64,000 nucleotides of DNA from Nannocystis bainbridge (GTDB taxonomy: Bacteria; Myxococcota_A; Polyangia; Nannocystales; Nannocystaceae). Shown piece after piece: positions 4,605-59,045 of this stretch (positions within the stretch are counted from its first letter, which is position 1; each line of letters opens with the position of its first letter). The notes beneath the pieces are model-generated. The model was not told where the DNA came from. It did not search any database and was given only the letters and a program-made list of their open reading frames with translations. The translations under genes were made by a program, and so were the position numbers. Location: positions 960,001 to 1,024,000 of the forward strand of contig NZ_JAQNDL010000001.1 of NCBI RefSeq assembly GCF_028368995.1, given 5' to 3'.

Positions 4605-5378
4605 TCACTCGCACGCCGGGAACTGCCCCGCGCCCGCGGCGTCGCCGGCCTCGACGAACGGGATGTCCATGTCCTCGAGGACATTGTTCTCAGTGTCGGT
4701 GACGCGAAACGCGTACGGCCCCGGGCCCATGCCCGCCTCAGCGACGAAATAGTTGTAGTCGAGCCGCGGCACCGCCTGCCACGCGCCCTCGCCGTCCTTG
4801 TATTCGAAGGCGGCGATCGGGTTTTTGTGCCCGCGGACCTGCACGGCCGTCCACCACTGGTTGCTGCCCTCCTTGAAGTGGTAGACGATCGGGCCGCTGG
4901 TCGCGCACGACACGAAGCCCCAGGAGATCGGCACACGGCCGAGCTCCTTGGCGGCGATCATGGGGAATGCAGCCTCGCTCAGATCGATGTCGCCCTGCGG
5001 ACATCCCGGACAACTGTCCACAATACGGACAATGATCGATCCGTCCGGTCCGTCGATCGCAACACACGCGCCGCACGCCGCCGAGTCCGCGTAATCGACG
5101 ATGTTCATCGCCGCCACCATCGGCTCGCCGGGGTCCGCGGCGAAGCTGCAATTGCCGCTGCCGTCCGCCGCATAATAGGTCGCCTCGCCGGTGTGGACCT
5201 CGCCCTCGCACACCTCGCCGCCCCCGCTCGCGGCGCCCGGATCGCTGTCTGCGTCCGTGCCCTCGCCGTCGCTGCTGGCGGCGCCCGGATCGCTGTCTGC
5301 GTCCGTGTCGGCGCGGTCGCTGCCGCCGCACGCCAGACACACCGACACCGCCACCCATATGCCGCGAGCTCCGCTCAT
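4605..5378 (-). CDS. Expansin-like lipoprotein (EXLX1/YoaJ family)
   Basis: Lipobox CLAC; GEATYY, GNCSF, ACGAC, IVDSCPGC, DIDLS DPBB domain; FKEGSNQWWTAVQV, DYNYF CBM63 domain; 30-bp duplication at 5230-5259 and 5278-5307 in the linker. Confidence 0.85.
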   Translation of the reverse strand: MSGARGIWVAVSVCLACGGSDRADTDADSDPGAASSDGEGTDADSDPGAASGGGEVCEGEVHTGEATYYAADGSGNCSFAADPGEPMVAAMNIVDYADSAACGACVAIDGPDGSIIVRIVDSCPGCPQGDIDLSEAAFPMIAAKELGRVPISWGFVSCATSGPIVYHFKEGSNQWWTAVQVRGHKNPIAAFEYKDGEGAWQAVPRLDYNYFVAEAGMGPGPYAFRVTDTENNVLEDMDIPFVEAGDAAGAGQFPACE

Positions 5379-5442
5379 GCCACCAGCAGGCCACGCGCCG
5401 ACCACCCTGTCAACGCTGGCGAACGGTGATACCATCGAGGCC

Positions 5443-5880
5443 GTGGGTCGTTACCGCGTGACTACCGAGGCCGATGTCGTCGGTGCCCGCGTGGCCGCCG
5501 AACGGCTCGCGCTGCAGGAGGGGTTCCCGCGGCTGGCGGCGCAGGAGGTCGCGCTCGTCACCTCGGAGCTGGCGTGGAACCTGGTGCGCCACGCAGGCGG
5601 CGGTGAGATCGATCTGGCGATGACGAACGGCCCGCACGGCCCGGCGATCGTCGTCGCCGCGATCGACGGCAGCCCGCCGATCGCCGACCTCGAGACCGCG
5701 ATGCTCGACGGCCACACCGCGAACGGGCCCATCCCGCCGGAGGAGCGGATGCGCCGGCGCGGCCTCGGCAGCGGCCTCGGAGCGGCGCTCCGCCTCAGCG
5801 ACCGCCTGGTCCAGGAGGCCTTGCCCCGGGGCAAACGCATCGTCGCCACCCGCTACCTGGTGCGCCCGGGCCGGCTGTGA
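5443..5880 (+). CDS. rsbT: RsbT-like anti-sigma Ser/Thr kinase (HATPase_c)
   Basis: EADVVGAR, VTSELAWNLVRHAGGG, IADLETAMLDG, GLGSGL; GTG start after GAGG (start inferred). Confidence 0.75.
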   Translation: MGRYRVTTEADVVGARVAAERLALQEGFPRLAAQEVALVTSELAWNLVRHAGGGEIDLAMTNGPHGPAIVVAAIDGSPPIADLETAMLDGHTANGPIPPEERMRRRGLGSGLGAALRLSDRLVQEALPRGKRIVATRYLVRPGRL

Positions 5881-5956
5881 GACATGTCCAAAGGGTCATG
5901 TCCTCGAGGACATGACCTCATCGACATGCCCTTCAGAGCATGTCCTGAAGTACACG
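5881..5956. repeat. 14-bp-period palindrome array (6 cores) at a convergent junction
   Basis: CATG at 5883, 5897, 5911, 5925, 5939; CACG at 5953. Confidence 0.85.
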
Positions 5957-6135
5957 ACGCGTCCGAATCACCACGCGCCCGGGCGAGCTCGCCGCGCGGC
6001 GAGGGACCGAGCGCCCGACCGAAGACCGCCGCGCATCCGTGACGACCAAGCGCGCCAACAGGGCGCCGCTTCAGAAAGCGACCGAGCGCGCGACGGAGGC
6101 CGTCGCGCGCTCGCCGGGGTCCGCCCGCGGGCGGC

Positions 6136-7601: not shown

Positions 7602-7605
7602 GGCC

Positions 7606-11037: not shown

Positions 11038-11685
11038 ATGTGCGTGTGGCTCGCCCTGCTCACCCGCCTGCTCGCGGTCCCGGAGCTCGACGCCGCCGCG
11101 CTGCGTGACGGCGACATCCTGCTCCACACCTCGCGCAGCGCGCAGGCCGTCGCCGTCGCCGCCGCCACCGCCAGCCCCTACACCCACGTCGGCATCGTCG
11201 ACCGCATTGGCGACGACGCCTTCGTGATCGAGGCCGTCGGCCCGACCCGCCGGACCCCGCTGTCCGAGTGGCTGGCCCGGGGCGCCGGCGGCAAGGCCAC
11301 CGCGGTGCGCCACCCCGGGCTCGACGCGGCCGCGCGCGCCGCCGTGGTGGCCGCCGCCACCAGCTACCTCGGGCGCCCTTATGACCTGTCCTTTACGCCA
11401 GGTGACGACGCCCTCTACTGTAGCGAACTGGTGACGCTCGCCTACGCCGCCGTCGACGTCGCGGTGGGTACGTGGCGCCCTCTGGGGGATCTCGCACTCG
11501 ACGACCCGGCCACGCGCCGACTGCTGAAGCGTCGCTGGCGAGCGCACCCGGCCTGCCGCGGCGCGCCCTCGCTCGCCGCGTGTCGGCCGGCGCTCGCAGC
11601 AGTCCCGGTCGTCACGCCGGAAAGCCTGGCGGCCGACCCTCGCTTGCGGATCGTCGGCACCAGCTACCTTCTCCGACCTCGCTGA
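11038..11685 (+). CDS. YiiX/YebB-like permuted papain-like (NlpC/P60) amidase
   Basis: LRDGDILL, SPYTHVGI, VIEAV, YLGRPYD, LYCSELV. Confidence 0.85.
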   Translation: MCVWLALLTRLLAVPELDAAALRDGDILLHTSRSAQAVAVAAATASPYTHVGIVDRIGDDAFVIEAVGPTRRTPLSEWLARGAGGKATAVRHPGLDAAARAAVVAAATSYLGRPYDLSFTPGDDALYCSELVTLAYAAVDVAVGTWRPLGDLALDDPATRRLLKRRWRAHPACRGAPSLAACRPALAAVPVVTPESLAADPRLRIVGTSYLLRPR

Positions 11686-13521: not shown

Positions 13522-13598
13522 ACCTGTCCCTAAGGGCATGCTCTCCAGGGCATGCCCTCAGCGCCATGTTCGCGGGGACATGTCCCCGCGGACAGGCG
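13520..13598. repeat. 14-bp-period palindrome array (6 cores) at a convergent junction
   Basis: Cores at 13523, 13537, 13551, 13565, 13579, 13593. Confidence 0.85.
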
Positions 13599-21792: not shown

Positions 21793-22926
21793 TTGTCTCG
21801 AATCCTTGCCTGCAGTCCTTTCTTGTTCCTCTTCACCGTCGCCTGCGGCGACCTCGAGAAGCTCTCGTCGACCGAGGGCGACGACCCCGGCAGCTCGTCC
21901 ACCACCGGCGCCAGCGACGGCTCCGCCACCACCGAGCCGGCCAGCCCCACCGGCGAAGCGACCGACAGCTCGACCACCGCCTCCACCCCCGATCCACTCA
22001 CCACGGGCGACCCCGTCACCACCGAGCCCGATCCGACCGACGGCCTCACCACCACCACCACCACCACCACCACCACCGATACCTCGACCACCACCGACAT
22101 CGGCACCTCGACCACCGACGACACCTCGACCACCGGCCTCGACCCGGTCGGTCCCGAGCTGCCCGTGCCGACCGCCGACTGTCCCGACATCGTCGACGGC
22201 GACGTCAGCTTCCACCCCGCCGGCCTCGACAGCCCGCGCGACGTGCGGATCTGGGTCGACCTCGACACCGCCCAGCAGGCCGACGGGCCGGTCGTGTTCT
22301 ACTGGCACGGCACGGGCGGCTCACCGCAGGAGGCGCTCACCGGCATCGGCGAGCTGGGCATCCAGGAGATCCTCGACCTCGGCGGCATCGTCATCGCGCC
22401 CACGCACGACCCGATGGCCGGCATCTTCCCGTGGTGGCTCGTGCTCAGCGAGACCGACGATGACCTGCAGCTCGCCGACGAGGTCCTCGCCTGCGCCCGC
22501 GAGCAGATCGGCGTCGACGCCAGCCGGATCTACGCCGCTGGTTTCAGCGCCGGCGGCCTCAACACCGCGCAGATGAGCATCCGTCGCTCGGGCTACATCG
22601 CCGCCGCCGCCCCCTACTCGGGCGGCCTCATCTTCGGCGCCAAGCCGCCATTCCAGGACCCCGACAACAAATTCTCCGCCATGATCTTCCACGGCGGCCC
22701 CGGCGACGTCGTCGTCGTCGGCTTCGAGCAGGCCAGCAAGGACTACGCCGCCTACCTCGACGACAACGACGAATTCAACTTCCTCTGCAACCACGGCGGC
22801 GGCCACTCGATCCCCGACGCCCAGGACAGCGTCATGCAGTTCTTCTTCGACCACCCCTACGGCGTCGGCGCCTCCCCGTACGCCCAGGGCCTGCCGGGCG
22901 ACTTCCCCGGCTACTGCGACCTCTGA
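21793..22926 (+). CDS. Lipoprotein with Thr-rich linker and alpha/beta hydrolase (LpqC/PHB depolymerase-like) domain
   Basis: TVAC lipobox; VFYWHGTGGS, GFSAGG nucleophile, FHGGPGD, HGGGH; (ACC)10 at 22048-22077. Confidence 0.75.
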   Translation: MSRILACSPFLFLFTVACGDLEKLSSTEGDDPGSSSTTGASDGSATTEPASPTGEATDSSTTASTPDPLTTGDPVTTEPDPTDGLTTTTTTTTTTDTSTTTDIGTSTTDDTSTTGLDPVGPELPVPTADCPDIVDGDVSFHPAGLDSPRDVRIWVDLDTAQQADGPVVFYWHGTGGSPQEALTGIGELGIQEILDLGGIVIAPTHDPMAGIFPWWLVLSETDDDLQLADEVLACAREQIGVDASRIYAAGFSAGGLNTAQMSIRRSGYIAAAAPYSGGLIFGAKPPFQDPDNKFSAMIFHGGPGDVVVVGFEQASKDYAAYLDDNDEFNFLCNHGGGHSIPDAQDSVMQFFFDHPYGVGASPYAQGLPGDFPGYCDL

Positions 22927-22932
22927 CCGAAG

Positions 22933-22985
22933 GGACACGTCCTCTCGGACATGGCCATGCGGCCATGTCCTCTCGGACATGTCCC
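22933..22985. repeat. 14-bp-period palindrome array at a convergent junction
   Basis: Cores at 22936, 22950, 22964, 22978; TGTCCTCTCGGACA. Confidence 0.85.
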
Positions 22986-26391: not shown

Positions 26392-27828
26392 ATGCACCCC
26401 GCGCGCGTCCTCCCCGTGGTCGTCCTGCTCTCGGCCCACTGCGCCGACGAGCCCACCAGCGGCTTCTCGGCCACCGTCCCCGCGGACACCACCGCGCCGA
26501 TCACCAACCCCCAGAGCAGCTTCCCCGACGCCACCGACACCGCCGACGCCACGACCACCACGACCGGCAGCCCGACGACCACCACCGGCACCACCACCGA
26601 CGCGCTCACCACCACCGAAGCTGCGTCGACCTCCTCGACGACGACCACGACGACCTCGACCACCGGCGACCCCTCGACCACCACCGCCACCGGGATCTGC
26701 GGCGACGGCGTCGTCGACGACGGCGAGGTCTGCGACGACGGCGACGCCGACGACGACGCCTGCCTCGGCGACTGTACTTCGGGACAGGCGCTGCTCGTGC
26801 TCGCCGGCGCCGGCCCGACCCCCGCCCTGGCCGCCCGCTACGTGCCCGGCCCCGGCTGGACCGTCGCCGAGCTCGACGTCGACCTCGGCGAGACCGCCCT
26901 CGTCGCCACCCACCTCGGCGCGCTCGGCGTCGGTCGCCGCGCCGCCGCCGACGCCGACGCGGAGAACGAGCTGACCTTCACGACATGGTCCAAGGGACAG
27001 CCCGAGACCTGGACCTCCGCCCAGCCGGTCGGCGCGTTCGGCTTCGCCATCGACGGCCCCGGCCTGGCCGCGGTCGGCGAGACCGTCACGCTCGCCTTCC
27101 TCGGCACCGACTTCAAGCACTACACCGCCCTGTGGACCGACGGCACCTGGGCCACGTTCGGCCCGCTGCCGGCCGGCATGCCGCAGGTCCAGGCCTTCGG
27201 CCCCAGCGCCGCCGTGCTCGCCTCGGGCCCCGCCGAGACCTACGCCGCCTACGCCGGCGACAACGGCAAGATCTTCTACAACTTCAAGGCCTCGCCGGGC
27301 GGCGCCTGGCAGTCGTCGATGCAGGCCCCGCCGCCGCTCGTCGTCAGCGGCCTCACCCCTGCCGCCCTCGTCGACGCCGACGGCGACCTGCTGATCGCCT
27401 ACGTGCGCGCGACCGACGGCAAGATCGCCGTCGTCAAGCTGCTCACCCCGCAGAACGCCTGGACCGTCGAGGCCATCGTCGACGACCTCGCCATCACCGC
27501 CAGCGAGCTCGCCTTCGTCGCCGTTGACGACGGCGCCTATTACATCGCCTGGAAGGGCTACGACGACGACGGCGTGTACGCCGTGCGCGGCCTCGACCAC
27601 GACGACTGGGGCGCCCCCTTCACCGCCGCCGAACCTGCGACGACCACCCTCCCGCCGGCCCTCGCGCGCGGGGCCGCCGGCGCCGACGCCGAGCTCGTCT
27701 ACGTCACCGGCGGCGCGCTGCAGCACGTCCGCCTCGTCGGCGACAGCCCCAGCCAGCCCAGCGTCGTCCCGGGCGCCACCGGCCTCAAGGCCCGCCCCGC
27801 CGCCGTGCGCGTGCAGATCGGCGGCTGA
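26392..27828 (+). CDS. Lipoprotein with Thr-rich linker, Cys-rich repeat and probable beta-propeller
   Basis: LSAHC lipobox, CGDGVVDDGEVCDDGD, W-containing beta repeats. Confidence 0.7.
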   Translation: MHPARVLPVVVLLSAHCADEPTSGFSATVPADTTAPITNPQSSFPDATDTADATTTTTGSPTTTTGTTTDALTTTEAASTSSTTTTTTSTTGDPSTTTATGICGDGVVDDGEVCDDGDADDDACLGDCTSGQALLVLAGAGPTPALAARYVPGPGWTVAELDVDLGETALVATHLGALGVGRRAAADADAENELTFTTWSKGQPETWTSAQPVGAFGFAIDGPGLAAVGETVTLAFLGTDFKHYTALWTDGTWATFGPLPAGMPQVQAFGPSAAVLASGPAETYAAYAGDNGKIFYNFKASPGGAWQSSMQAPPPLVVSGLTPAALVDADGDLLIAYVRATDGKIAVVKLLTPQNAWTVEAIVDDLAITASELAFVAVDDGAYYIAWKGYDDDGVYAVRGLDHDDWGAPFTAAEPATTTLPPALARGAAGADAELVYVTGGALQHVRLVGDSPSQPSVVPGATGLKARPAAVRVQIGG

Positions 27829-27834: not shown

Positions 27835-27900
27835 GAGTATGTCCATTCGGACATGTTCTTCACAACATGTCGATGAAGCTATGTCTCCAAGGACATAGAA
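27835..27900. repeat. 14-bp-period palindrome array at a convergent junction
   Basis: Cores at 27838, 27852, 27866, 27880, 27894. Confidence 0.8.
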
Positions 27901-33487: not shown

Positions 33488-33581
33488 TCCGCGCGCCCCA
33501 GGCCCGCGTCCCTCCCCCGCGCGGCGGCCCCGTCGCGCGGGGGAGGGACGCCCGCCCGCGCCCGCGTGCTACACCGCGGGC
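33425..33581 (+). repeat. Direct repeat copy 1 (copy 2 at 34634-34790)
   Basis: 33425-33530 identical to 34634-34739; 33549-33581 identical to 34758-34790. Confidence 0.92.
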
Positions 33582-33828
33582 CGACGTGCACGCTCGCAAG
33601 CGGACCCACCGGCCCTTCCTTGAGGATCAGCCGAGCGTCGAGACGCATCGGCCACGAGCTGTCCCTTTGGACATGAGCCGCGAGGTCCACGCCAAGAGCG
33701 TCGCCAACCCGCTGATGTTCCGCAAGCTGCGGCGCGAGGACGAACCCAGAAGCAGCCGCGCGCCGCCGACCTCTCGTGGCTGCTGACCGCGGCTACAGCG
33801 ACGAGGCGGCGCTCAACCTGGTCGGCGG
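33578..33828 (+). pseudogene. Decayed duplicate of the Rieske 3' end and DUF434 5' end
   Basis: Matches 35587-35748, 35781-35800 and 35915-35978 with substitutions (ARKRTHRPFLEDQP..PRAVPLDMSREVHAKS). Confidence 0.85.
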
Positions 33829-33898
33829 ACGGTGGATACGAATTTGTTGGTGCGACACGGTCACGGGTTGAGTCCAGACCGGAGAGTATTCTTTCACC

Positions 33899-34696: not shown

Positions 34697-34790
34697 TCCG
34701 CGCGCCCCAGGCCCGCGTCCCTCCCCCGCGCGGCGGCCCGTCCGCCGCGCGGCGTGGCGCCCGCCCGCGCCCGCGTGCTACACCGCGGGC
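34634..34790 (+). repeat. Direct repeat copy 2
   Basis: Offset 1209 bp from copy 1. Confidence 0.92.
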
Positions 34791-35831
34791 GTGCTGCAGA
34801 ACTTCTGGTACGCCTGTCACCGCGCGTCCGAGATCGGCACCCAACCGGTCCGCTTGCGCGCGCTCGGCCACGAATTCGTGCTGTGGCGCGACGGCGACGG
34901 CCGGGTCGTCGCCCTCGACGACCGCTGCCCGCACCGCGGCGGCTCCCTGTCTCAAGGGACATGCTCGAACGGACACGTCGTATGCCCGTACCACGGCTGG
35001 GCCTTCGCCGCCGACGGCGCCTGCGTGCACATCCCGGCCAACACCGGCGACGCCCGCATCCCTCGCAAGGCCCAGGTCCGCAGCTACCCGACCGAAGAGC
35101 GCCACGGCTGGGTGTGGCTGTTCGTCGGCGACCTGCCCGAGGCCGAGCGCCCGCCGATCCCGCCGCTGCCCGAGTACGGCCAGCCGGGCTGGAAGGCCAT
35201 CCACGGCGAGTTCCTCTGGCACGCGCACTACACCCGCGTGGTCGAGAACGGCATGGACATCGCCCACGCCCCGTTCGTCCACTCGCGCTCGTTCGGCAAC
35301 CCCGCGCACCCCGAGGTCGCCGACTACACCGTCGAGCCGCACCCGTGGGGCGCCAGCGCCTCCGTCGAGTTGGTCGCCCCGCCGCCGAGCGGCCTGTGGT
35401 CGCTGGTGCTGCCGAAGCAGCGCCCGCCGGTCAAGACCCGCGTCGCCTTTTACATGCCCTGCTACACCCGCCTCGACCTCGACCTCGGCGGCATGAAGAT
35501 GATCGTCTTCAACAGCAACATCCCGGTCGACGACGAGCACACCCTGACCCGCTGGATCATGCTGCGCGACTTCTTCACCGGCGCCTGGGCCGACGGCAAC
35601 GCCCGCAAGCGGACCCACCGGATCTTCCTCGAGGACCAGCCGATCGTCGAGGCGCAGCGGCCACGAGCTGTCCCTTTGGACATGAGCCGCGAGGTCCACG
35701 CCAAGAGCGACGCCATCCCGCTGGTGTTCCGCAAGCTGCGGCGCGAGTGCCTGGTCGAGCGCGGCTGGGGCCTGCGCTGGGACGAACCCGAAGCCGCCGC
35801 GCCCGCGCCCCTGGTCGCCCTCCGCACATGA
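34791..35831 (+). CDS. Rieske non-heme iron oxygenase (VanA-like)
   Basis: CPHRG...CPYHGW Rieske; ENGMDIAHAPFVH mononuclear iron site; EDQPIVEAQ. Confidence 0.9.
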   Translation: MLQNFWYACHRASEIGTQPVRLRALGHEFVLWRDGDGRVVALDDRCPHRGGSLSQGTCSNGHVVCPYHGWAFAADGACVHIPANTGDARIPRKAQVRSYPTEERHGWVWLFVGDLPEAERPPIPPLPEYGQPGWKAIHGEFLWHAHYTRVVENGMDIAHAPFVHSRSFGNPAHPEVADYTVEPHPWGASASVELVAPPPSGLWSLVLPKQRPPVKTRVAFYMPCYTRLDLDLGGMKMIVFNSNIPVDDEHTLTRWIMLRDFFTGAWADGNARKRTHRIFLEDQPIVEAQRPRAVPLDMSREVHAKSDAIPLVFRKLRRECLVERGWGLRWDEPEAAAPAPLVALRT

Positions 35832-42001: not shown

Positions 42002-43870
42002 ATGGCCACGCCGCAGCCGACCGCCTGCCTCCTCGTCCTCGCCCTCGCCGCGTGCCCTGGCGGTGACTCGCCCGGCGACTCTGCCACCGAGCCCGGGACC
42101 ACCGGCGGCGACGGCCCCACCACGACCTCGCCCGGCACCGACACCGACGCGCCGACCACCACCGGCGTCGACGGCTTCGGCCCCGAGCGGGAGTTCGTCC
42201 TCCGGCTCAACGACGACCCCGCGCCGCCGCTCAAGCTCAGCCTGAACAAGGCCGACGCCGCCGCGCTGTTCGGCGCCACCGCCGGCGAGATCAAGCTGCT
42301 CGACATCGAGTCGGGCACGCTGCTGAAGAACACCCTCGACACCATCAAGAGCGCCTGCGGCACCGGCTGGAAGGCCGACGACGCCGACCCGAAGCACGAC
42401 TGCTCGGGCACCGACTTCAAGGGCCCCGACAACACCTGGAAGACCAGCGCCGAGTACTCGCTGATCCGGATCCTCACCATGACCCCGGCCAACGCCAGGG
42501 TCGCCGGCACCTCGATCGCCGGCATGCAGGGCCTCGCCGACGGCCTCGGGATCGGCGGCGGCTTCAGCCAGATGCTCTCCGAGACCCTCGGCATCCAGCG
42601 CACCGAGGAGTTCATCACCACCCCGGAGCTGGTGGTCGCGCTCCAGCGCAACCTGCTCGCCACCCACCCGCACATCGGCGGCGACGGCAAGTCGCTGCCG
42701 CTCTACCTCGACGACGCGCTGCAGGACCTCACCACCCTCGCCACCAAGCTCGGGCCCACGGGCGACCACCCCGGCATCGTCGACCCCAGCTTCCCGATCA
42801 CCAGCGAGTGCCTCACCCCCGAGTTCGCCATGAACATCGAGGCCGAGAGCAACCTCCGCCTGCTCGACGGCATCGACCTGTCCGAAGGGAAAGATTACAT
42901 GTCGACCGTCGTCGACGTGGCCGGCCCGACCTTCGGCGACCCGCTCGAGTTCGACTTCAACGACCCGGCCAAGTTCTCGATCGTCGGCGTCGCCGACGCG
43001 CCGCGCGTCGACCTGCGCTTCGCCATCTCCGAGCACGACGACTTCATCAACTCGTGCGCCGGCGACCCCGCCTGCAAGCAGAACCTGCCGGAGAACGTCG
43101 ACCTGGTGAAGGCGACCTGGCCCGGCTCGGCGTGGGCCATCGACCCGTGGCTGCTCGAGAGCGTGATCGTGGCCGGCGGGCGCGAGAAGTACAAAAACCG
43201 CATCTTCGACAAGTGCTACGAGGTGCTGTTCTCCTGCAACCTCGGCGCCCACGTCTACGTCGGCCCCGACCCGCCCGGCTGGGCCCTGTTCGACATCTTC
43301 CTCAACCTCGGCAACCCGCCCAAGGACCAGTACGTCTGGGAGCTGATCAACGAGGTCGCCCAGATCGCCCTGCACACCCCGCCGAACATCGCCATCCCCG
43401 AGGGCTCGGCCGACGTCGCCTTTACCCTGCGCGACATCGACATCGGCGTCACCGGCCCGCAGATCGCCGAGTCGGTGCGGCCCTACTTGCAGGCGCAGGC
43501 GCCCAAGATCGCCGACCTGCTGCTCGGCGACTACTGGAAGAACAACGGCCCCGTCGACTTCTACTACCGCCGCGGCGGCGACGGCCTGCCCTACCTGTTC
43601 TACGTCGCGCCCGACGACCTGCCGCCGAACGCCGAGTACAAGCACCCCAACCCCGGCTTCTTCACCTGTCCCGAAGTACAGCCGAGCTGCAAGGCCTCGG
43701 CGACCGAGCTCGCCGGCGCCGGCGACGACATCCGCGAGAAGGTGCGCCTCGACGCCGGCGAGACCGTCCTCTACGTCCAGGACGACGCCGGCGTCCTTTA
43801 CCGCGCCCGCTTCCTCGTGCCCGAGGGCGACGCCAAGGAGATCACCGTGCGCGTCGCCGCCTTCGAGTGA
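42002..43870 (+). CDS. Hypothetical lipoprotein, 622 aa
   Basis: LAAC lipobox, strong GC3 bias, globular composition. Confidence 0.75.
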   Translation: MATPQPTACLLVLALAACPGGDSPGDSATEPGTTGGDGPTTTSPGTDTDAPTTTGVDGFGPEREFVLRLNDDPAPPLKLSLNKADAAALFGATAGEIKLLDIESGTLLKNTLDTIKSACGTGWKADDADPKHDCSGTDFKGPDNTWKTSAEYSLIRILTMTPANARVAGTSIAGMQGLADGLGIGGGFSQMLSETLGIQRTEEFITTPELVVALQRNLLATHPHIGGDGKSLPLYLDDALQDLTTLATKLGPTGDHPGIVDPSFPITSECLTPEFAMNIEAESNLRLLDGIDLSEGKDYMSTVVDVAGPTFGDPLEFDFNDPAKFSIVGVADAPRVDLRFAISEHDDFINSCAGDPACKQNLPENVDLVKATWPGSAWAIDPWLLESVIVAGGREKYKNRIFDKCYEVLFSCNLGAHVYVGPDPPGWALFDIFLNLGNPPKDQYVWELINEVAQIALHTPPNIAIPEGSADVAFTLRDIDIGVTGPQIAESVRPYLQAQAPKIADLLLGDYWKNNGPVDFYYRRGGDGLPYLFYVAPDDLPPNAEYKHPNPGFFTCPEVQPSCKASATELAGAGDDIREKVRLDAGETVLYVQDDAGVLYRARFLVPEGDAKEITVRVAAFE

Positions 43871-44619: not shown

Positions 44620-44692
44620 TGAGCCCGGTAGGAATCGAACCTACAACCCAGGGATTAAGAGTCCCTTGCTCTACCAATTGAGCTACGAGCCC
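44620..44692 (-). tRNA. tRNA-Lys (anticodon CTT), CCA not encoded
   Basis: GGGCTCGTAGCTCAATTGGTAGAGCAAGGGACTCTTAATCCCTGGGTTGTAGGTTCGATTCCTACCGGGCTCA cloverleaf. Confidence 0.95.
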
Positions 44693-46013: not shown

Positions 46014-46056
46014 GCACATGTCCCCAAGGACATATAACATGTCCGAAAGACCATCC
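46014..46056. repeat. 14-bp palindromic units
   Basis: CATGTCCCCAAGGACATATAACATGTCCGAAAGAC. Confidence 0.7.
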
Positions 46057-46094: not shown

Positions 46095-47558
46095 ATGAGC
46101 TCGCTCGCCGCGATCGGCCTGGTCGTCGCCGTCTACCTCGCGATCACCCTCGTGATCGGCGTCGTCGCCTATCGCCGCACCGCCGGCACCCCCGAGGACT
46201 ATTTCCTCGGCGGTCGGGCTGCTCGCACCTTCGTCCTCTTCATGGCCCTGTTCGGCACCAACGTCACCCCGTTCGTGCTGCTCGGCATCCCCGGCCTCGC
46301 CTATCACCAGGGCGTCGCCGTGTTCGGCCTCAACGCCGCGATCGTCGGCCTCGGCATCCCGCTCACCTTCTACTTGATCGGTGAACCTGCCCGGCGCGCC
46401 GCCCGTCGCCTCGGCGCCATCACCCCGGCCGAGCTCTACGCCGAGCGGCTCGCCTCGCCCGCGGTCGGCCTGGCCCTGTTCGCCGCCTTCTTCCTCTACA
46501 CCCTCCCGTACATGGTCACCGCGGTGATCGGCGCCGGCCTCACCGCCGAGGTCCTGACCGACGGCCACCTGTCCTTTGGAGCAGCCGCCGCCCTCATCCT
46601 CGCCATCACGATCGCCTACACCGCGCTCGGCGGCATGCGGGCCACCATGTGGACCAACGTGTTTCAGGGCGCGACCTTCCTCGGCTTCATCGTCGCCGCC
46701 TTCTTCCTGATCGCCGACCGCCTCGGGGGCTTCGCCGCCGCCACCACCGCCGTACAGGCACGCGCCCCGCACCTGCTCGAGAAGACCACCGCCGGCGCCT
46801 TCGCCCCCGGTCCGTGGGCCTCGTGGGCGCTGGCCATCTCGCTGACCGTGATCGCCTTCCCGCACATGCTCGTGCGGGTGTTCGCCGCCCGCGACGCGAC
46901 CGCGCTCAAGAACGTGTGCCGCCTCTACCCCGTCGTGCTGGTGGTTCTGTGGCTGCCCGCGGTCCTGTTCGGCGTGTGGGGTGCCGCCGAGATCGGCGGC
47001 CTCCAGGGCAAGGCCAGCGACGCCATCTTCCCGCTGCTGGTCGCGCGTCACCTCGGACCTGTCCTTCAGGGCATGGCGCTCGCCGGCGTGCTCGCGGCCG
47101 TGATGTCGACCCTCGACGCCCAGCTGCTCACCCTCTCCTCGATGCTCACCCGCGACGTCCTGCGCCGCCTCCTGCCCGGCCTCGCCCCCGCGCGCGAGGT
47201 CGTGGCCGCGCGGCTGTTCACGCTCGCGCTCTCGGCGGCCGTGTTCGTCCTCGTGCTCGCGCGCCCGGCCTCGCTGTTCGACATCGCCGCCTTCAGCTTC
47301 TCCGGCTACGTCACCCTCACCCCCACCCTGCTGCTCGGCGTCCGCTGGCGCCGCTTCACCGCCGCCGGCGCCATCGCCTCGATCGCCGCCGGCAACCTCG
47401 CCCTCGCCCTCGCCTTCGCCGGCATCCTGCCCGCGCCCTTCGGCGTCCTCCCGGTCGCCTGGGGTCTGGTCGCGGCCATCGCCGGCGCCCTCGTCGGCTC
47501 CGCGCTGTCCCGGCCTCCGCCCGCGCACGTGATCACCCGCGCCCTCGGCCCCGCGTGA
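46095..47558 (+). CDS. Sodium:solute symporter family protein
   Basis: EDYFLGGR, YTALGGMRATMWTNVFQG, AAVMSTLDAQLL; about 13 TM. Confidence 0.9.
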   Translation: MSSLAAIGLVVAVYLAITLVIGVVAYRRTAGTPEDYFLGGRAARTFVLFMALFGTNVTPFVLLGIPGLAYHQGVAVFGLNAAIVGLGIPLTFYLIGEPARRAARRLGAITPAELYAERLASPAVGLALFAAFFLYTLPYMVTAVIGAGLTAEVLTDGHLSFGAAAALILAITIAYTALGGMRATMWTNVFQGATFLGFIVAAFFLIADRLGGFAAATTAVQARAPHLLEKTTAGAFAPGPWASWALAISLTVIAFPHMLVRVFAARDATALKNVCRLYPVVLVVLWLPAVLFGVWGAAEIGGLQGKASDAIFPLLVARHLGPVLQGMALAGVLAAVMSTLDAQLLTLSSMLTRDVLRRLLPGLAPAREVVAARLFTLALSAAVFVLVLARPASLFDIAAFSFSGYVTLTPTLLLGVRWRRFTAAGAIASIAAGNLALALAFAGILPAPFGVLPVAWGLVAAIAGALVGSALSRPPPAHVITRALGPA

Positions 47559-49168: not shown

Positions 49169-51169
49169 ATGCTTCGCACCTCGCCCGTCCGTCCCGTCGC
49201 CCCGTCCTACTTCGTCCTCCCCCAGCGCGCCCGCCTCGCGCGCTTGCTGCCCGCCGCGGTGGCCCTCCTGGGCGCGCTCCTCCCCGCCTGCGCCCCCGAG
49301 CCGACCATCGACGAGATCGTCAGCGACGGCGGCTACGCCAACAACCGCTTCCTCCGCGCGATCGCCAAGCCCGACGCGATCGAAGAGGAAGCCCCGCCCC
49401 AGGACCTCGAGAACAGCGGCGACGAGGCCGCCGGCACCGGCCAGCGGCACAAGGGCGAGGAGGGCAAGATGGGCAGGCCCACCTCGAAGAACAAGTCGGG
49501 CCTCTACGCGATGAAGGGCCCGAAGGACGCGATCCCGCAGATGGACGCCTGGGGCGGCCTGACGGGCACCGAGATCGGTGAAGCGTACGGCGTCGGCGGC
49601 CTCGGCCTGGTCGGCACCGGCCGCGGCGGCGGCGGCACCGGCGAGGGCACGATCGGCAGCGCCTACGCCGTCGGCAAAGACGACGACGCCGTGTGGGGCG
49701 GCCTCGTCGCCCACGACACCGCCGGCGCTCCGGGCGGCGATCGCTACGCGAAGGTGCAAGAGGCCGCGTGGACGCTGACCCACGCCGCGCCGCTTTCGAC
49801 CTTCTCGATCGACGTCGACACCGCCAGCTACAGCAACGTCCGCCGGTTCCTGAGCGACAACTACTTGCCGCCGCCCGACGCGGTCCGTGTCGAGGAGATG
49901 ATCAACTACTTCGACTACGCCTACCCCGCGCCCGACGGCGATCATCCGCTCGGCGTCGGCGCCGAGGTCGCTCCGTGTCCGTGGAAGAAGGGCCACCAGC
50001 TGGTGCGCGTGCACCTGCAGGCCAAGAAGATCGAGACCACCCAGGTGCCCGCGCGCAACCTCGTGTTCCTGGTCGACACCTCGGGCTCGATGAGCGACGA
50101 CGACAAGCTCGGCCTGGTCCGCAAGGGCCTGTCGCTGCTCACCGAGCAGCTGCGTCCCGAAGATCGCATCTCGCTCGTCACCTACGCCGGCGACACCCGC
50201 GTGGTCCTGCCGACCACTTCCGGCAGCGACAAGGCGACGATCTTGCGCGCCATCGATCGCCTCGGCGCCAACGGCGGGACCAACGGCGGCGCCGGCATCG
50301 CCCTCGCCTACGCCGAGGCTCACAAGCACTTCGTGAAGGGCGGCATCAACCGGATCCTGCTCGCCACCGACGGCGACTTCAACCTCGGCCTCACCGATCA
50401 CGACGACCTGATCAAGCTGATCGAGAAGGAGCGGCAGACCGGCGTGTTCCTGACCGTGCTGGGGGTCGGCCGCGGCAACTACAACGACCGGACGATGGAG
50501 CAGATCGCCGACCACGGCAACGGCAACTACGCCTACCTCGACTCCGAGAAGGAGGCGCGCAAGGTCCTGGTCGCCGAGGCGAGCGGCACGCTCGTCACCG
50601 TCGCCAAGGACGTCAAGCTGCAGGTCGAGTGGAACCCCAACCGCGTGGCCGGCTACCGCCTGATCGGCTACGAGAACCGCACCCTGACCGCCGAGCAGTT
50701 CAACGACGACAAGAAGGACGCCGGCGAGCTCGGCGCGGGCGACAGCGTCACCGCGCTGTACGAGGTCGTGCCCGCCGGCCGTCCGGTGCCCGGGGTCGCG
50801 GTCGACAACCTCAAGTACCAGCGCCCCGCCGGCCCCGCCGACGCCGAGCTGCTGACGATCAAGGTCCGCTACAAGCAGCCCGAGGGCGACAAGAGCACCA
50901 AGTTCGAGTCCCCCGTCCAGGACGCCCGCACCGAGTGGGCCGAGGCCTCGCCGCAGCTGCGCCTCGCCGCCGCCGTCGCCGCCTTCGGCCTCAAGCTGCG
51001 CGGCTCGCCGAGCCTCGACAACTTCGACCTCGCCGCCGCCCGCGCCTGGGCCCACTCGGCCGAGCTGCCCGACCCCGAGGGTCACCGCCGCGAGTTCGTC
51101 GCGCTGGTCGACAAGGCCCGCCAGCTGATGGACCGCGAGACCGTGCACAGCCGCAGCGCCCTGCCCTGA
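49169..51169 (+). CDS. YfbK-like VWA domain lipoprotein (vWF_A, VWA, DUF3520)
   Basis: PLSTFSIDVDTASY, VRVEEMINYF, FLVDTSGSM MIDAS, ATDGDFN, YRLIGYENR, DAGELGAG. Confidence 0.88.
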   Translation: MLRTSPVRPVAPSYFVLPQRARLARLLPAAVALLGALLPACAPEPTIDEIVSDGGYANNRFLRAIAKPDAIEEEAPPQDLENSGDEAAGTGQRHKGEEGKMGRPTSKNKSGLYAMKGPKDAIPQMDAWGGLTGTEIGEAYGVGGLGLVGTGRGGGGTGEGTIGSAYAVGKDDDAVWGGLVAHDTAGAPGGDRYAKVQEAAWTLTHAAPLSTFSIDVDTASYSNVRRFLSDNYLPPPDAVRVEEMINYFDYAYPAPDGDHPLGVGAEVAPCPWKKGHQLVRVHLQAKKIETTQVPARNLVFLVDTSGSMSDDDKLGLVRKGLSLLTEQLRPEDRISLVTYAGDTRVVLPTTSGSDKATILRAIDRLGANGGTNGGAGIALAYAEAHKHFVKGGINRILLATDGDFNLGLTDHDDLIKLIEKERQTGVFLTVLGVGRGNYNDRTMEQIADHGNGNYAYLDSEKEARKVLVAEASGTLVTVAKDVKLQVEWNPNRVAGYRLIGYENRTLTAEQFNDDKKDAGELGAGDSVTALYEVVPAGRPVPGVAVDNLKYQRPAGPADAELLTIKVRYKQPEGDKSTKFESPVQDARTEWAEASPQLRLAAAVAAFGLKLRGSPSLDNFDLAAARAWAHSAELPDPEGHRREFVALVDKARQLMDRETVHSRSALP

Positions 51170-51170
51170 A

Positions 51171-52560: not shown

Positions 52561-54006
52561 TCATCCCCCGACCTCCGCAAGTCCCGCCCGGATGTCCGCG
52601 AGCGCGAGGTCGATGCGGTCCCGGTGGGTGCGAAACGAGAGCACGCAGATCCGCAGCACGAAGCCGCCGCGCACCATCGTGCCCGTCAAGTACACGCGGC
52701 CGCGACGGTTGATCGCCGCCAACCACCGGCGGTTGTGCGCGTCGAGCTCGGGCCCCTCGCCGGCGCCCGCGGGCACGTGGCGAAACGCGAGCAGCGACAG
52801 CTGCGGCGGCGCGACCATCTCGACGCCCGGCAGCTCGCGCAGAGCCGCGGCGCACACCTCGGCGAGGTCGAGCTTCTCGTCGAGCGCCCGCGCGAACACC
52901 CGCGCCCCGAGCAGCTTGAGCGGTAGCCACACCCGCAGCCCGCGAAAGTCCCGCGACAGCTCGGGCGACAACTCGCAGTAGTCGACGAATTCGGGGTCTT
53001 CCTGCATCGGCGGCAAGTACTCGGCGGGCGAGCCGTGGGCCCGCCGCAGCGCCGCGGGGTCGCGGGCGAGCAGACAACCTGTCCCATAGGGCAGGAACAT
53101 TCCCTTGTGCGGATCGAGCGTGACCGAGTCGGCGCGCTCGATGCCGGCCAGCGCCGCCCGCCCGCGCCCGGTGAGGCAGAAGAACCCGCCGTACGCGGCG
53201 TCGACGTGCAACCACAGGCGCTCACGCGCGGCCAGCTCCGCCAGCGCGTCGAGGTCGTCGACCGCCCCGGTGTTGGTGGTGCCGGCGTGACCGACGATCA
53301 GGCACGGCCGCAAGCCTCGGGCCCGATCGGCGGCGATCGCCGCGGCCATCGCCGCCACGTCGACGCGAAACTGTCCGTCGACGCCGATCTCCCGCACCTG
53401 ATCGCGACGAAACCCGGCCAGCCGCGCGGCCCGCTGGACCGAGTGATGCGCCTGCTCCGAGGTGTAGATCACACCGTCGTCGAAGCGCTCGCCGAGCCGC
53501 TCGCTGCGGGCCGTCACCACCGCGGAGAAGGTCGCCAGCGATCCACCCGTGGTCAGAAACCCGCCGCTGCCCGCCGGCAAGCCGACGATCTCCGCCAGCC
53601 AGCGGACCGCGTTGGTCTCGAGCTGCACCAGCCCCGGCGCCGCCTGCCACACCCCGACGTAGCGGTTGGTCGCGTCGGCGATCAAGTCGGCCACGGCCGC
53701 CAGGAACAGCCCGCCGCCGGGGACATAGGCCAGGTAGCCCGGGCCCGCGGTGTTGAAGCTGCACGGGACTGCCCGATCGAACAGGACCCCGAGGACATGT
53801 TCAAAAGGGCTGCCGCTCTCCGGCAGCCCCTCGCGCAGCTCGCGGGCCAGCGCCGCCCCGCCCTCGACGTCGCAGGCGAGCATGCCGGGCAACGCCTCGA
53901 TGTGCGCCCCGATCCGCGCCATCGCGGCGGCCACCAGCGCCTGCATCGCCGCCGCGTCGGGTTCGAGCTCGGGCGTCGGAGAGTCGGGCGGGGGCGTCGC
54001 GCGCAC
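52561..54006 (-). CDS. Group II PLP-dependent (aromatic amino acid) decarboxylase
   Basis: TGGSLA, AHHSV, AGTTNTGAVD, HVDAAYGG, DPHK (PLP Lys), ELSRDFRGL; 14-bp cores at 53768/53782/53796. Confidence 0.9.
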   Translation of the reverse strand: MRATPPPDSPTPELEPDAAAMQALVAAAMARIGAHIEALPGMLACDVEGGAALARELREGLPESGSPFEHVLGVLFDRAVPCSFNTAGPGYLAYVPGGGLFLAAVADLIADATNRYVGVWQAAPGLVQLETNAVRWLAEIVGLPAGSGGFLTTGGSLATFSAVVTARSERLGERFDDGVIYTSEQAHHSVQRAARLAGFRRDQVREIGVDGQFRVDVAAMAAAIAADRARGLRPCLIVGHAGTTNTGAVDDLDALAELAARERLWLHVDAAYGGFFCLTGRGRAALAGIERADSVTLDPHKGMFLPYGTGCLLARDPAALRRAHGSPAEYLPPMQEDPEFVDYCELSPELSRDFRGLRVWLPLKLLGARVFARALDEKLDLAEVCAAALRELPGVEMVAPPQLSLLAFRHVPAGAGEGPELDAHNRRWLAAINRRGRVYLTGTMVRGGFVLRICVLSFRTHRDRIDLALADIRAGLAEVGG

Positions 54007-54207
54007 GCCACGGACGTACGCCAAGCGCCGCCAAAACACCAGCGCCGCCGGCGACGCCACGAGCCGAGCCCGCCGCCTGCCTGTCCCTTCGGCCATGCTC
54101 ACCGGCCGCCGTCGCCGCCCGGGCCGCGGGCCCCGTCGTCGTGACGCGCCGCGTCGCCCGTGAGATCGCGTAGCCCGGCCGCCGCCGTCTTCCTCTATCC
54201 TTCGCCC

Positions 54208-54876: not shown

Positions 54877-54888
54877 ACGCGCTCTCGG

Positions 54889-54955
54889 GGACATGTCCCC
54901 GTGGACATGTCCCTGTGGACATGCCCCGGTGGGCATGTCCGAAGAAACATCTCCT
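54889..54955. repeat. Best-conserved 14-bp tandem palindrome array, at a convergent junction
   Basis: GGACA TGTCCCCGTGGACA TGTCCCTGTGGACA TGCCCCGGTGGGCA TGTCCGAAGAAACA; cores 54892-54948. Confidence 0.9.
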
Positions 54956-56566: not shown

Positions 56567-56672
56567 GATGTCTCGTCACGCATGTCCCGCTCGCCATACG
56601 CCCTCGATCCGCCCAGGCCGCGACATGTCCATTCGGACATGTCCTGATCGCCATGCGCCCCGCGAGCCATGC
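56555..56672. repeat. 14-bp-period palindrome array in a divergent promoter region
   Basis: Cores at 56567/56581/56595 and 56624/56638/56652. Confidence 0.7.
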
Positions 56673-56831
56673 ACCGCCTCGGCTCGCTCTCGCAGCTGTT
56701 CCCGCCCACCGGCGAGCGGCCCGCGCCGCCTGCGCGAACCCGCCCCCGCGCCCTCTTGAACGCCCTTCCCGTCCCTCTCGGCTCCGCGCGCTCGCCCCTG
56801 CGTCCGGGCCGGTCTATCGTCTCCTGGGAGC

Positions 56832-59045
56832 ATGCCGGCCGTCCGAGTCCACGACGCCTCGCCCGACGACGACCTGTTCGCCTACCTCGCGCGCACCGGC
56901 GGCGACGACGTTCGCCGGGCCCAGCTGATCGGCGCTGCCAACGCCTTCAAGGAGGGTGACGCCGCGCTCGGCCTCGCCGCGGCCGACATGTCCTCGCGGA
57001 CAGCCGCGCGCCGGCTCCTCGCCGCCACCGCCGTCGGCCGGCTCGCCGCCGCCCCGCTGTTCCGCGACGGGCTCCACGACGCCCTCGCCGCCGCCCTCGA
57101 CCCACGCGCCGCGGCCCACGTCTCGACCTGGTCTTTGGGCCAGCTCAAGACCTTCGTGCTGACCGCCGACGAGGCCGAGGTCAACCAGCTGCTGCCCGGC
57201 CTCGCCAGCGACGTCGTCGCCTGCCTGGTCAAGATCATGAGCGACGCCGAGCTCGTCGCTCTCGGCGCGCGGCTGTTCCACCCGCTGCCCGGCAGCCGGC
57301 TCGGCGCGCGCGGCTACCTCGGCGCACGGATCCAGCCCAACAGCCCGACCGACCACCCCGACGACATCCGCTGGCAAGTGCTGGCCGGCTGGTCCTACGC
57401 CGTCGGCGACGTCGTGCTCGGCACCAACCCCGTGTCGTCCGACCCGCGCTCGGTGGCCGCGGTCGAGGCTGTCCTTTGGGACATCCTGGTCGATTTCGGC
57501 CTGCAGGACACCCTGCCCCACTGCGTGCTCGCCCACATCGAGGTCCAGGCCGCGGTCGAGCGCGCCGCCCCCGGCACCACCGGGATCTGGTTCCAGAGCA
57601 TCGCCGGCTCCGACGCCGCCAACGCCACCTTCGGCCTCGACCTCGAGGGTCTGCGCCGCCACGCTCGCGGCCGCACCGGTCGCTGGGGCCTGTACTTCGA
57701 GACAGGTCAGGGCGCCGACTTCACCAACGGCCACGGCCGCGGCGTCGACATGGTCGTCCACGAGGCCCGCAAGTACGGCCTCGCCCGCCTGCTGCGGGCC
57801 GACGTCGCCGACGCTCGCCGCCGCCTCGGCCTCTACCCGGAGCCGTGGGTCCACGTCAACGACGTCGCCGGCTTCATCGGCCCCGAGGTGTTCCGCACCC
57901 GCGACCAGCTGGTGCGCTGCTGCCTCGAGGACATCGCCATGGCCAAGCTGCACGGCCTGATGATCGGCCTCGACGTGTGCGCCACCCTGCACATGGACAT
58001 CGGCCTCGACGACCTCGACTGGTGCCTCGAGCGGATCGCCCCGGCCTGCCCGGGCTACCTCATGGCCCTGCCGACCAAGAGCGACCCGATGCTCGGCTAC
58101 CTCACCACCGCCTTTCAGGACCACGTGCGCCTGCGCGAGCGGTTCGGCACCCGCGTCGACGATCGCATGTGGGAGTTCTTCCGCGACCGCCTCGGCGTCG
58201 TCGATGCGCGCGGCCGGCCGACCGCGCGCTTCGGCGATCCGGTGTGGGTCCACCTCCAGCTGTGCCGCGCCCGCGGCGACGTCCGCCCGGACGACGTCAT
58301 CGCCGGCGAGGGTCGGGCCGCGCTCGCGGCCGTGCGCGCCCGCGGCGTGGCGATCGGCGAGGGCCACGGCGACCGCCCCTGGGACCTCCCGCCTGCCCTC
58401 GACGCCGAAGTCCGCGGCCTCTGCGACGACGCCAAGCACAGCCTGCGCGCCGAGTGGCGCGCCGAGTTCGTCAGCAAGATCCCCGGCGCCCGGCGCCTCG
58501 CCACCTGCGCCGGCGACCGCGACGAATACATCCTCCACCCGCCCACCGGCGAGGCGCTGAGCCCCGCCGCGCTCACCGAATTACATGTCCTTAAGGACAG
58601 CTACGCCGGCCGCTTCGACACCGTCCTGGTCGTGTCCGACGGCCTCAACGCCCGCGCGCTGATGGACGACGAGCACCTGTTCCCGTTCCTCGATGTCCTG
58701 GTCCCCGAGCTGCGCGCCGCCGGCTTCGCGCCCGCGCCCGACGTGTTCGTGCTCGCCGGCGGCCGCGTCCGCGCCGGCTACGCCCTCGGCGCGGCCCTGT
58801 TCGCCGATCTGCCCGGCCCGCGGCGCCTCGTCCACGTCATCGGCGAGCGCCCCGGCACCATGCACCACGCCTTCTCCGTCTACCTCAGCGCCGCCGACGG
58901 CCTGGCCTGGGCCCGGCCGCGCGGCGTCGACCACCACCTCACCCGCGTGATCTCCGGCGTCGCCGACACCGCCTATCTACCGGCCCGGGCCGCGCGCGAG
59001 GCCGTCGCCATCCTCCAGGACATGCCCTCGAGGACATGCCCCTGA
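56832..59045 (+). CDS. eutB: Ethanolamine ammonia-lyase, EutB-EutC fusion
   Basis: ANAFKEGD, RIQPNSPTD, GTNPV, CVLAH, FQSIAG, YFETGQG, GFIGPE, CLED (EutB); then YILHP..GE.L, VSDGL, GRV, IGERPG (EutC). Confidence 0.85.
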   Translation: MPAVRVHDASPDDDLFAYLARTGGDDVRRAQLIGAANAFKEGDAALGLAAADMSSRTAARRLLAATAVGRLAAAPLFRDGLHDALAAALDPRAAAHVSTWSLGQLKTFVLTADEAEVNQLLPGLASDVVACLVKIMSDAELVALGARLFHPLPGSRLGARGYLGARIQPNSPTDHPDDIRWQVLAGWSYAVGDVVLGTNPVSSDPRSVAAVEAVLWDILVDFGLQDTLPHCVLAHIEVQAAVERAAPGTTGIWFQSIAGSDAANATFGLDLEGLRRHARGRTGRWGLYFETGQGADFTNGHGRGVDMVVHEARKYGLARLLRADVADARRRLGLYPEPWVHVNDVAGFIGPEVFRTRDQLVRCCLEDIAMAKLHGLMIGLDVCATLHMDIGLDDLDWCLERIAPACPGYLMALPTKSDPMLGYLTTAFQDHVRLRERFGTRVDDRMWEFFRDRLGVVDARGRPTARFGDPVWVHLQLCRARGDVRPDDVIAGEGRAALAAVRARGVAIGEGHGDRPWDLPPALDAEVRGLCDDAKHSLRAEWRAEFVSKIPGARRLATCAGDRDEYILHPPTGEALSPAALTELHVLKDSYAGRFDTVLVVSDGLNARALMDDEHLFPFLDVLVPELRAAGFAPAPDVFVLAGGRVRAGYALGAALFADLPGPRRLVHVIGERPGTMHHAFSVYLSAADGLAWARPRGVDHHLTRVISGVADTAYLPARAAREAVAILQDMPSRTCP

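Follow-up and report, generated by a model that had tools for sequence, protein, structure and literature searches.

Why should single copies of a palindromic DNA word lie inside the genes of a G+C-rich myxobacterium, where they are spelled by rare A/T-ending codons? The question is raised by a 64,000-nucleotide stretch of the Nannocystis bainbridge genome (contig NZ_JAQNDL010000001.1, positions 960,001 to 1,024,000; this whole stretch is referred to as the window), for which an earlier note proposed selection at the DNA level through synonymous changes, as for Chi, KOPS (FtsK-orienting polar sequences), matS or uptake sequences, and not only through mobile insertion. We find that the word, with the core TGTCC-N4-GGACA, is made and kept by point substitution, and not by insertion, codon usage or a peptide motif, and that it overrides synonymous choice and, more often, amino-acid choice. 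The proposed pressure at the DNA level is borne out by counts in coding sequences (CDSs) that are 13-33 fold over the codon-shuffled expectation, though selection and a non-adaptive drive are not separated by these data.

The word was defined on the whole source genome (11.05 Mb in 5 contigs, 71.5% G+C, completeness 90.5%), which holds 1987 perfect copies of the core. As dyads with other spacers (0-3 and 5-11 bases) occur in 0-16 copies each, the spacer is strict in length and free in sequence; 11 control palindromes of similar make-up occur in 0-83 copies. The full consensus in the logo is GGACATGTCC-N4-GGACATGTCC, the flanks lengthen the dyad to RCA/TGTCC-YNNR-GGACA/TGY, and conservation stops at about 24 bp. 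The 14-mer of the earlier note, TGTCCTTAAGGACA, has 37 matches with up to 3 mismatches in the window (66.5-76% G+C in 2-kb bins) against 0.33 expected, but it over-specifies the word, because the 4-base spacer is free and TTAA is merely one of many spacers. When scored as CATGTCC-N4-GGACATG, the genome contains 369, 1659, 3227 and 4200 sites with 0, 1, 2 and 3 mismatches, compared to 2, 6, 62 and 761 with a 5-base spacer, or about 8,600 copies above background. Within the arms, G2/C13 are nearly invariant and T3/A12 are tolerant of change. Neighbouring sites are found at distances of 14, 28, 42 and 56 bp in 485, 274, 165 and 58 pairs, and these multiples of 14 bp identify head-to-tail arrays of a 14-bp unit. 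Each full 250-kb bin along the five contigs contains perfect copies (10-79 per bin). No prior report of such a word in Nannocystis or other myxobacteria was found in the literature searched, which lay mostly outside the subscription journals.

Genes were called with a simple codon-model caller of our own (7891 genes, 82% coding). Of the perfect copies, 754 (38%) lie wholly in called genes, 1219 are intergenic and 14 straddle a gene end, so that the density is 0.083 per kb in coding and 0.61 per kb in non-coding DNA; the intragenic copies are spread over the entire length of genes. Synonymous shuffling within each gene yields 22.4 +/- 4.1 copies (maximum 32 in 40 shuffles) and a stricter shuffle, in which the first base of a codon and that of the next codon are kept, 55.9 +/- 5.8 (maximum 68), where 745 are observed. 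All three reading frames are enriched, with 426, 257 and 62 copies compared to 19.8, 1.8 and 0.85 in shuffles. The excess extends to one-mismatch copies (1688 against 404 expected from codon shuffling) and is absent for two-mismatch copies (3922 against 4564), and the ratio of perfect to one-mismatch copies is 1:2.3 in genes and 1:18.5 in shuffled genes. Third codon positions are 94.4% G+C, and 266 of the 3341 ACA codons (8%) sit in perfect copies. The same is seen locally: the 53 complete called genes of the window contain 5 perfect and 13 one-mismatch copies, compared to shuffle means of 0.19 and 3.22, and none of 300 shuffles (maxima 2 and 8) reached these counts.

The window has the following intragenic sites; mismatches are counted over the ten bases of the TGTCC and GGACA arms.

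58586..58599, TGTCCTTAAGGACA, perfect, within the EutC-coding part of the fused eutBC gene (56832-59045, + strand), codons TTA CAT GTC CTT AAG GAC
57470..57483, perfect copy in the EutB domain of eutBC, codons GCT GTC CTT TGG GAC
56989..57002, perfect copy in the EutB domain of eutBC, codons ATG TCC TCG CGG ACA, overlooked by the earlier note
59023..59036, TGCCCTCGAGGACA with one mismatch, at the 3' end of eutBC, also overlooked
35669..35682, perfect copy in the VanA_C domain of a Rieske oxygenase gene (34791-35831, + strand)
34948..34961, one-mismatch copy in the same Rieske oxygenase gene (34791-35831, + strand)
4670..4683, perfect copy in a DPBB_1 (expansin-like) gene (4605-5354, - strand)
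47060..47073, one-mismatch copy (GGGCA arm) in an SSF symporter gene (46095-47558, + strand)
43667..43680, one-mismatch copy (GTACA arm) in an open reading frame (ORF) without a Pfam family (42002-43870, + strand), with a second one-mismatch copy at 42879
53080..53093, one-mismatch copy in a pyridoxal phosphate (PLP) decarboxylase gene (52561-54060, - strand)
1555..1637, two one-mismatch copies (1555 and 1624) in a queA-like gene (686-1831, - strand)
11387..11400, two-mismatch site, described earlier as an amidase site, at chance level
46570..46583, two-mismatch site, the second symporter site described earlier, at chance level

All nine strings reported in the earlier note are present where it placed them: four are perfect (4670, 35669, 57470 and 58586) and three have one mismatch (43667, 47060 and 53080). 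The remaining two, 11387 and 46570, are not distinguishable from chance, since the two-mismatch class in CDSs does not exceed its shuffled expectation. Pfam confirms most of the host genes as named (DPBB_1/expansin-like, C92 amidase, Rieske and VanA_C, SSF symporter, PLP decarboxylase and the EutB-EutC fusion); the supposed lipoprotein of 622 aa has no Pfam match.

The gene with most sites in the window, eutBC, has three perfect copies and one with a single mismatch, and is among the 36 genes of the genome with at least 3 perfect copies. Its protein is 90% identical to that of the nearest named relatives, Nannocystis species. EutB and EutC are fused in one ORF of 737 aa, and all 80 loci returned with eutBC as the query (from other Myxococcota, Planctomycetota and other phyla) match as one near-full-length stretch.

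Both checks proposed with the earlier claim were carried out: the codon shuffles above, whose expectation the observed counts exceed, and alignments of orthologues, in which sites differ by point substitution and gaps are no commoner than in controls. A codon alignment of eutBC from four Nannocystis and seven distant orthologues has no gap at any of the three perfect sites. In comparisons of the window with five same-genus genomes, all five intragenic copies are ungapped wherever they are aligned, and are perfect or one to two substitutions away. At 58586, in the context GAA TTA CAT GTC CTT AAG GAC, the arm pair is perfect in two of the five relatives and the other three have TGGCC (a Gly/Val difference), without gaps. 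The relatives have an ungapped TGCCC or TGCTC at 57470 (codons GCT GCC CTC/CTT TGG GAC), hence the word was completed in the source lineage by a C-to-T change (Ala to Val). The copy at 56989 is perfect in two of five relatives and has one mismatch (TGGCC) in three; the rare ACA codon is kept in all five, and more distant orthologues have other residues, again ungapped. Arms are identical in all four aligning relatives at 35669, and the 4670 copy is identical in all three, with flanks that differ.

The same pattern is observed on a larger scale in the genome sample G010, of which 969 kb could be aligned one-to-one with the source genome. Gaps occur at 2 of 83 CDS sites (control 2.8%) and at 12 of 49 intergenic sites (control 31%); an insertion signature is absent at both kinds of orthologous site. 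This agrees with the earlier view that mobile insertion is not the sole source of the word. A ~1.34-kb element of G010 is 97% identical to C1:4041578-4042916, C2:850193-851530 and C2:92308-93107 of the source genome, where syntenic DNA is ~88% identical; it is probably an insertion sequence common to the source species and G010.

The proposal that the word acts through synonymous changes does not hold as put. Where intragenic sites align with G010 without gaps, the arms show 50 differences in all, 35 of them non-synonymous and 15 synonymous, and synonymous change is the minor route for the word inside genes. Consistent with this, peptides compatible with the word are in excess: the counts per frame are 1149, 569 and 142, compared to 747, 278 and 11 in proteomes with residues shuffled within proteins. 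In the two commoner frames this excess is about equal to the copies actually present (426 and 257). Protein sequence is therefore rewritten by the word, which does not merely exploit synonymous freedom.

The arms are conserved beyond their surroundings. G010 has both arms unchanged at 50 of 83 intragenic sites (60%), compared to 41% in controls matched for frame and neighbourhood (p = 4e-4). Intragenic divergence from G010 is about 0.065 per site in the arms, about 0.18 in the 15-base flanks on each side and 0.12-0.27 in the spacer, with about 0.10 at frame-matched control sites within 2 kb. Between genes the corresponding values are about 0.19 for arms, about 0.30 for flanks and surrounding non-coding DNA, and 0.41-0.59 for spacers. 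The suggestion that rare A/T-ending codons spell the word found strong support: A/T third bases that serve as arm bases of perfect copies are identical in G010 in 84 of 90 cases (93%), compared to 4440 of 13690 (32%) for all other A/T-ending codons (p = 8e-34).

As to the spacers themselves, those between genes diverge faster than the surrounding non-coding DNA, with arms diverging more slowly. Inversion of the spacer by hairpin flipping was considered and rejected, as no reverse-complement flip was seen at the 69 CDS and 25 intergenic sites that could be compared with G010.

The density of the word is inverse to constraint: it peaks behind stop codons, is lower in spacers on the promoter side and reaches its minimum in genes. 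Inside genes, the word lies at poorly conserved positions and is rarest under the strongest codon bias, its density being 0.126 per kb in the lowest quartile of codon-model score and 0.036 per kb in the highest. Density also varies with gene length, from 0.037 per kb in genes below 600 nt up to 0.142 per kb in those of 3.2-5 kb, and at 100-500 bp from an intergenic site intragenic density is about half that at 1-3 kb. Coding DNA of the G010 sample that is common to the source genome has 68 copies in 974 kb (0.070 per kb) and unshared coding DNA 8 in 337 kb (0.024 per kb); no such difference in density between shared and unshared DNA is seen in the non-coding part of that sample.

A survey of 59 genomes of the order, each at least 80% complete, shows that the word is a trait of a small clade. 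All ten genomes of the genus to which the source genome belongs have 333-2090 copies. Two further genera have fewer, 87-169 in four of four genomes and 67-295 in five of five, and the 40 genomes of eleven other genera are at background, with 0-20 copies. In this survey the reversed-pattern control gives 0-10 copies. The idea of word 'dialects' in sister genera was dropped, as the sister-genus sample G011 (400 kb, 61% G+C) shows only a different and much weaker top dyad, TGCAC-N5-GTGCA, with 24 copies against 0.5 expected; the sample G013, also of a sister genus, comprises 64 kb.

Between genes, the word follows gene ends. Convergent spacers have the highest density, 1.43 copies per kb, followed by tandem (0.59) and divergent (0.19) spacers. 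The share of spacers that hold a perfect or one-mismatch copy follows the same order, at 58% (of 1299), 27% (of 3754) and 16% (of 1449), respectively (5-base-spacer control about 1% overall and 1.3% in convergent spacers). Normalised to the bases available, density reaches 6.8-7.7 per kb in the first 20 bp behind stop codons, has dropped to about 1 per kb at 200-300 bp, and is as low as 0.6-0.9 per kb in the 40 bp that precede start codons. The intergenic sites of the window are the following.

54888..54950, five GGACATGTCC-N4 units in an array with 14-bp phasing, located between convergent genes; the cores at 54894 and 54908 are perfect
56626..56657, pair upstream of eutBC, perfect core at 56626 and degenerate unit at 56640
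59051..59078, two adjoining one-mismatch units directly behind the eutBC stop codon
5885..5954, array with perfect core at 5899
4541..4589, two perfect copies (4541 and 4576) between genes 3399-4532 (+ strand) and 4605-5354 (- strand)
61349..61505, two arrays of degenerate units (61349-61418 and 61474-61505)
13525..13594, cluster of one perfect core (13581) and two units with one mismatch (13525 and 13567)
22924..22979, array behind gene 21823-22926, perfect core at 22966
27840..27895, pair behind gene 26392-27828, perfect copy at 27840 and one-mismatch copy at 27882
46019..46032, perfect copy upstream of the symporter gene

The region 54885-54950 folds into two hairpins (-43.9 kcal/mol, z-score -7.2) and 5880-5960 into nested hairpins (-33.2 kcal/mol, z -4.7). 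Single intragenic cores form stems of 5 bp only (-8.5 kcal/mol, z -2.2).

Repetition of the word is also seen in some coding segments made of tandem repeats with one copy per unit, up to 10 copies in 386 bp (C2:2066962-2067347, C2:1217435-1217700 and C2:2616756-2616985).

Taken as a whole, our preferred explanation, which we hold with moderate confidence, is that the intragenic copies are true members of one clade-wide family of dyad words, formed and kept on the DNA itself. The word would be read as duplex DNA by a sequence-specific, probably dimeric, putative protein; we infer such a reader from the strict spacing, the specific arm bases and the fact that most variants are uncompensated. Near-matches that mutate towards the word would be favoured, by selection or by drive, in the manner of an uptake sequence or HIP1 (highly iterated palindrome 1), and protein function would then filter where intragenic copies can stay. 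Copies at gene ends stack in 14-bp-phased arrays that also form strong bidirectional hairpins, with hairpin formation probably a secondary property of the arrays.

As for function, a self-DNA tag of the uptake-sequence type is our tentative first choice, suggested by analogy and best called possible; a site for a nucleoid or topology protein, ranked second, is rather unlikely, and a protein-assisted terminator or gene-end signal, ranked third, is unlikely. A more specific reading, which we regard as doubtful, is that Nannocystis and the two sister genera have a dedicated putative protein that reads a palindromic self-DNA tag, either as the first uptake-like system in Myxococcota or as a protein-assisted bidirectional gene-end signal, with the word placed in ~750-1300 intragenic positions at the cost of rare codons and amino-acid replacements.

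Several points weigh against the preferred explanation or the functions proposed under it. Known uptake sequences have an oriented, non-palindromic core, and the Nannocystis word is a dyad; the non-coding copies of uptake sequences do serve as inverted-repeat terminators. Clusters of sites are clumped and not evenly spaced (coefficient of variation of the gaps 1.32), and copies per gene are over-dispersed, as the 36 genes with at least three perfect copies compare to about 3 expected. The peak behind stop codons exceeds what uniform pressure filtered by constraint would give and points to a job at transcript 3' ends. Some degree of hairpin constraint or subfamily structure is present, since 5 of the 10 stem pairs show symmetric double variants enriched 1.5-2.5 fold. 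In alignments of paralogues, a gap lies opposite 64 of 245 covered sites (26%), compared to 13.5% of 2468 control positions, and local identity is 0.336 at word sites and 0.411 at controls; the segments that hold copies are thus variable and prone to indels, and some copies, a minority, may lie in small insertions or have arrived with them. All CDS statistics depend on our own crude gene caller. Homologues of ComEC and DprA are present, but the same searches match 10-11 of 14 control genomes, and the presence of such near-universal families says little.

One alternative is an RNA or single-strand DNA hairpin, selected as a bidirectional terminator or 3'-end stabiliser, of which the intragenic copies would be weak internal versions or spill-over. 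It would account for the density peak at 0-20 bp behind stop codons, for the preference for convergent over divergent spacers, for the folding of the arrays and for the mild excess of compensating variants. We nevertheless judge it improbable, as it is the sequence of the arms that is conserved rather than their pairing (for most variants, 55-98% of copies are uncompensated), and the 5-bp stems of single intragenic cores are accompanied by 93% conservation of rare A/T third bases. The spacer has no bias relative to the direction of transcription, no T-tract follows (at least 4 T in the next 8 nt at 18%), and a scan of the window yields no Rfam family for the word.

Quite improbable, in our judgement, is a non-adaptive drive of the repair type, in which methylation-linked very-short-patch correction, as in Elhai's model for HIP1 (stated in the available part of PMC4390886), would generate functionless sites. 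A palindromic word that arises by substitution and has many one-mismatch neighbours is what such a process would leave, and the source genome has 12 matches to N6/N4 methyltransferase genes. These methylases are found in 59 of the 59 genomes of the order, however, so that their presence as a class does not track the word and is uninformative. Vsr has 0 matches in the source genome and occurs in 1 of 10 other same-genus genomes searched, C5 methylase has 0 matches and occurs in 3 of 9 others of the genus, and C-to-T variants of the arm cytosines are the commonest variants (407 and 111) instead of being depleted. Moreover, the drive does not predict a peak behind stop codons.

Mobile hairpins of the REP (repetitive extragenic palindrome)/REPIN (REP doublet forming a hairpin) type, spread by a transposase and with gene copies as in-frame insertions similar to the palindromic elements of Rickettsia, are very improbable. 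Such elements would share with the word its palindromy, its thousands of copies, its position at gene 3' ends and its clustered arrays, and the excess of gaps between paralogues fits them. Yet mobilisation by a RAYT (REP-associated tyrosine transposase) was rejected, because PF01797 (Y1/RAYT transposase) has 0 matches in the source genome, at its 90.5% completeness, in a search that matches 6 of 14 control genomes; in addition, 754 of the 1987 perfect copies fall within genes, gaps at orthologous sites are no commoner than in controls, conservation ends at about 24 bp, and 14 bp is not a multiple of three.

Finally, an excess produced by chance, codon-usage bias, a peptide motif or faulty gene calling, to which the crude caller and the two chance-level sites lend themselves, has next to no probability and is already refuted by the shuffles, whose maxima never approach 745, and by the conservation of A/T third bases, together with the enrichment in all three frames, the higher density in non-coding DNA, the sites inside the Pfam domains EutB, EutC and VanA_C, and the 0.036 copies per kb that remain even in the most strongly codon-biased quartile of genes, where shuffling yields about 0.0024 per kb.

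Returning to a clade-wide word kept on the DNA itself, comparison with known systems shows features shared with several of them. Chi and KOPS are over-represented, oriented, strand-skewed sequences read by proteins, and matS consists of a few dozen sites confined to the terminus region. Like these, the Nannocystis word is over-represented, also inside genes. The analogy drawn with them in the earlier note is nevertheless poor: unlike Chi and KOPS, the word equals its own reverse complement and therefore cannot be strand-skewed, and unlike matS it is not confined to one region, as each full 250-kb bin on the five contigs contains it. The parallel with uptake sequences, drawn in the same place, fits much better, and so does one with HIP1, which is not mentioned there.

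REP, BIME (bacterial interspersed mosaic element) and REPIN sequences are palindromic hairpins at gene 3' ends, in clustered arrays and thousands of lineage-specific copies. The Nannocystis word resembles them in its palindromic form, its location at gene 3' ends, its arrays and its restriction to a lineage. It differs in that no RAYT gene was found in the source genome, 38% of perfect copies are intragenic, and orthologous sites lack an insertion signature.

Uptake sequences and HIP1 are the closest analogues. In the available part of the study by Findlay and Redfield (PMC2817400), uptake sequences are described as clade-specific short words with thousands of copies, spread through genes by point mutation; they raise the frequency of the peptides that they encode and favour weakly conserved positions, with few copies in genes that lack homologues in relatives. 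Like the uptake signal sequences (USS) of Pasteurellaceae and the DNA uptake sequences (DUS) of Neisseriaceae, the Nannocystis word is short and clade-specific, reaches genes by point mutation, raises the frequency of encoded peptides (1149/569/142 against 747/278/11), prefers poorly conserved positions and is scarce in unshared genes. The 38% of its copies found in genes compares to 34.5-65% of USS and DUS copies in ORFs (PMC2817400, part available). In contrast to USS and DUS, it is a dyad with a free 4-base spacer, forms 14-bp arrays and has clumped sites.

HIP1 (GCGATCGC) and the alternate HIPs of cyanobacteria are likewise hyper-abundant palindromes within and between ORFs. Orthologous HIP1 sites and their codons are conserved above controls, which was taken as selection in the part of Xu et al. 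(PMC5861425) that was available, and HIP1 is tied to the methyltransferases that modify it (PMC4390886, in part). Orthologous sites and codons of the Nannocystis word are also conserved above controls (50/83 against 41%; 84/90 against 4440/13690). Unlike HIP1, a contiguous 8-mer, the word is bipartite, 7 times denser in non-coding DNA and anchored behind stop codons, and no C5 methylase or Vsr was found in the source genome.

The word thus provides a clear-cut example of protein evolution being constrained by a DNA word, and extends the set of genome-wide words spread by substitution (USS, DUS and HIP1) to a large-genome myxobacterial clade. New to this set are the bipartite form, the 14-bp-phased arrays and the anchoring behind stop codons. 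Because its taxonomic range is graded, the putative reader protein should be findable by phyletic profiling. In these producers of natural products the word marks native as opposed to foreign DNA and is to be heeded when genes are recoded, and it may matter for making poorly tractable strains transformable.

Further features were noted in the window. Positions 33425-34635 are a patchwork partial duplicate of the adjoining Rieske/VanA oxygenase locus, absent from the five same-genus relatives; its pieces 33425-33581, 33578-33738 and 33755-33827 correspond to 34634-34790 (93.8%), 35587-35747 (91.3%) and 35906-35978 (91.9%), respectively. A perfect copy of the word at 33660..33673, inside this duplicate, is a copy of the site at 35669. 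A tRNA gene at 44620-44692 (- strand) is the only Rfam match in the window. At 49382-49657, two neighbouring segments (163 and 115 bp) have further copies, 82-94% identical, in ~2-6 other places in each of the five relatives searched, which makes this region a candidate dispersed repeat or conserved module.

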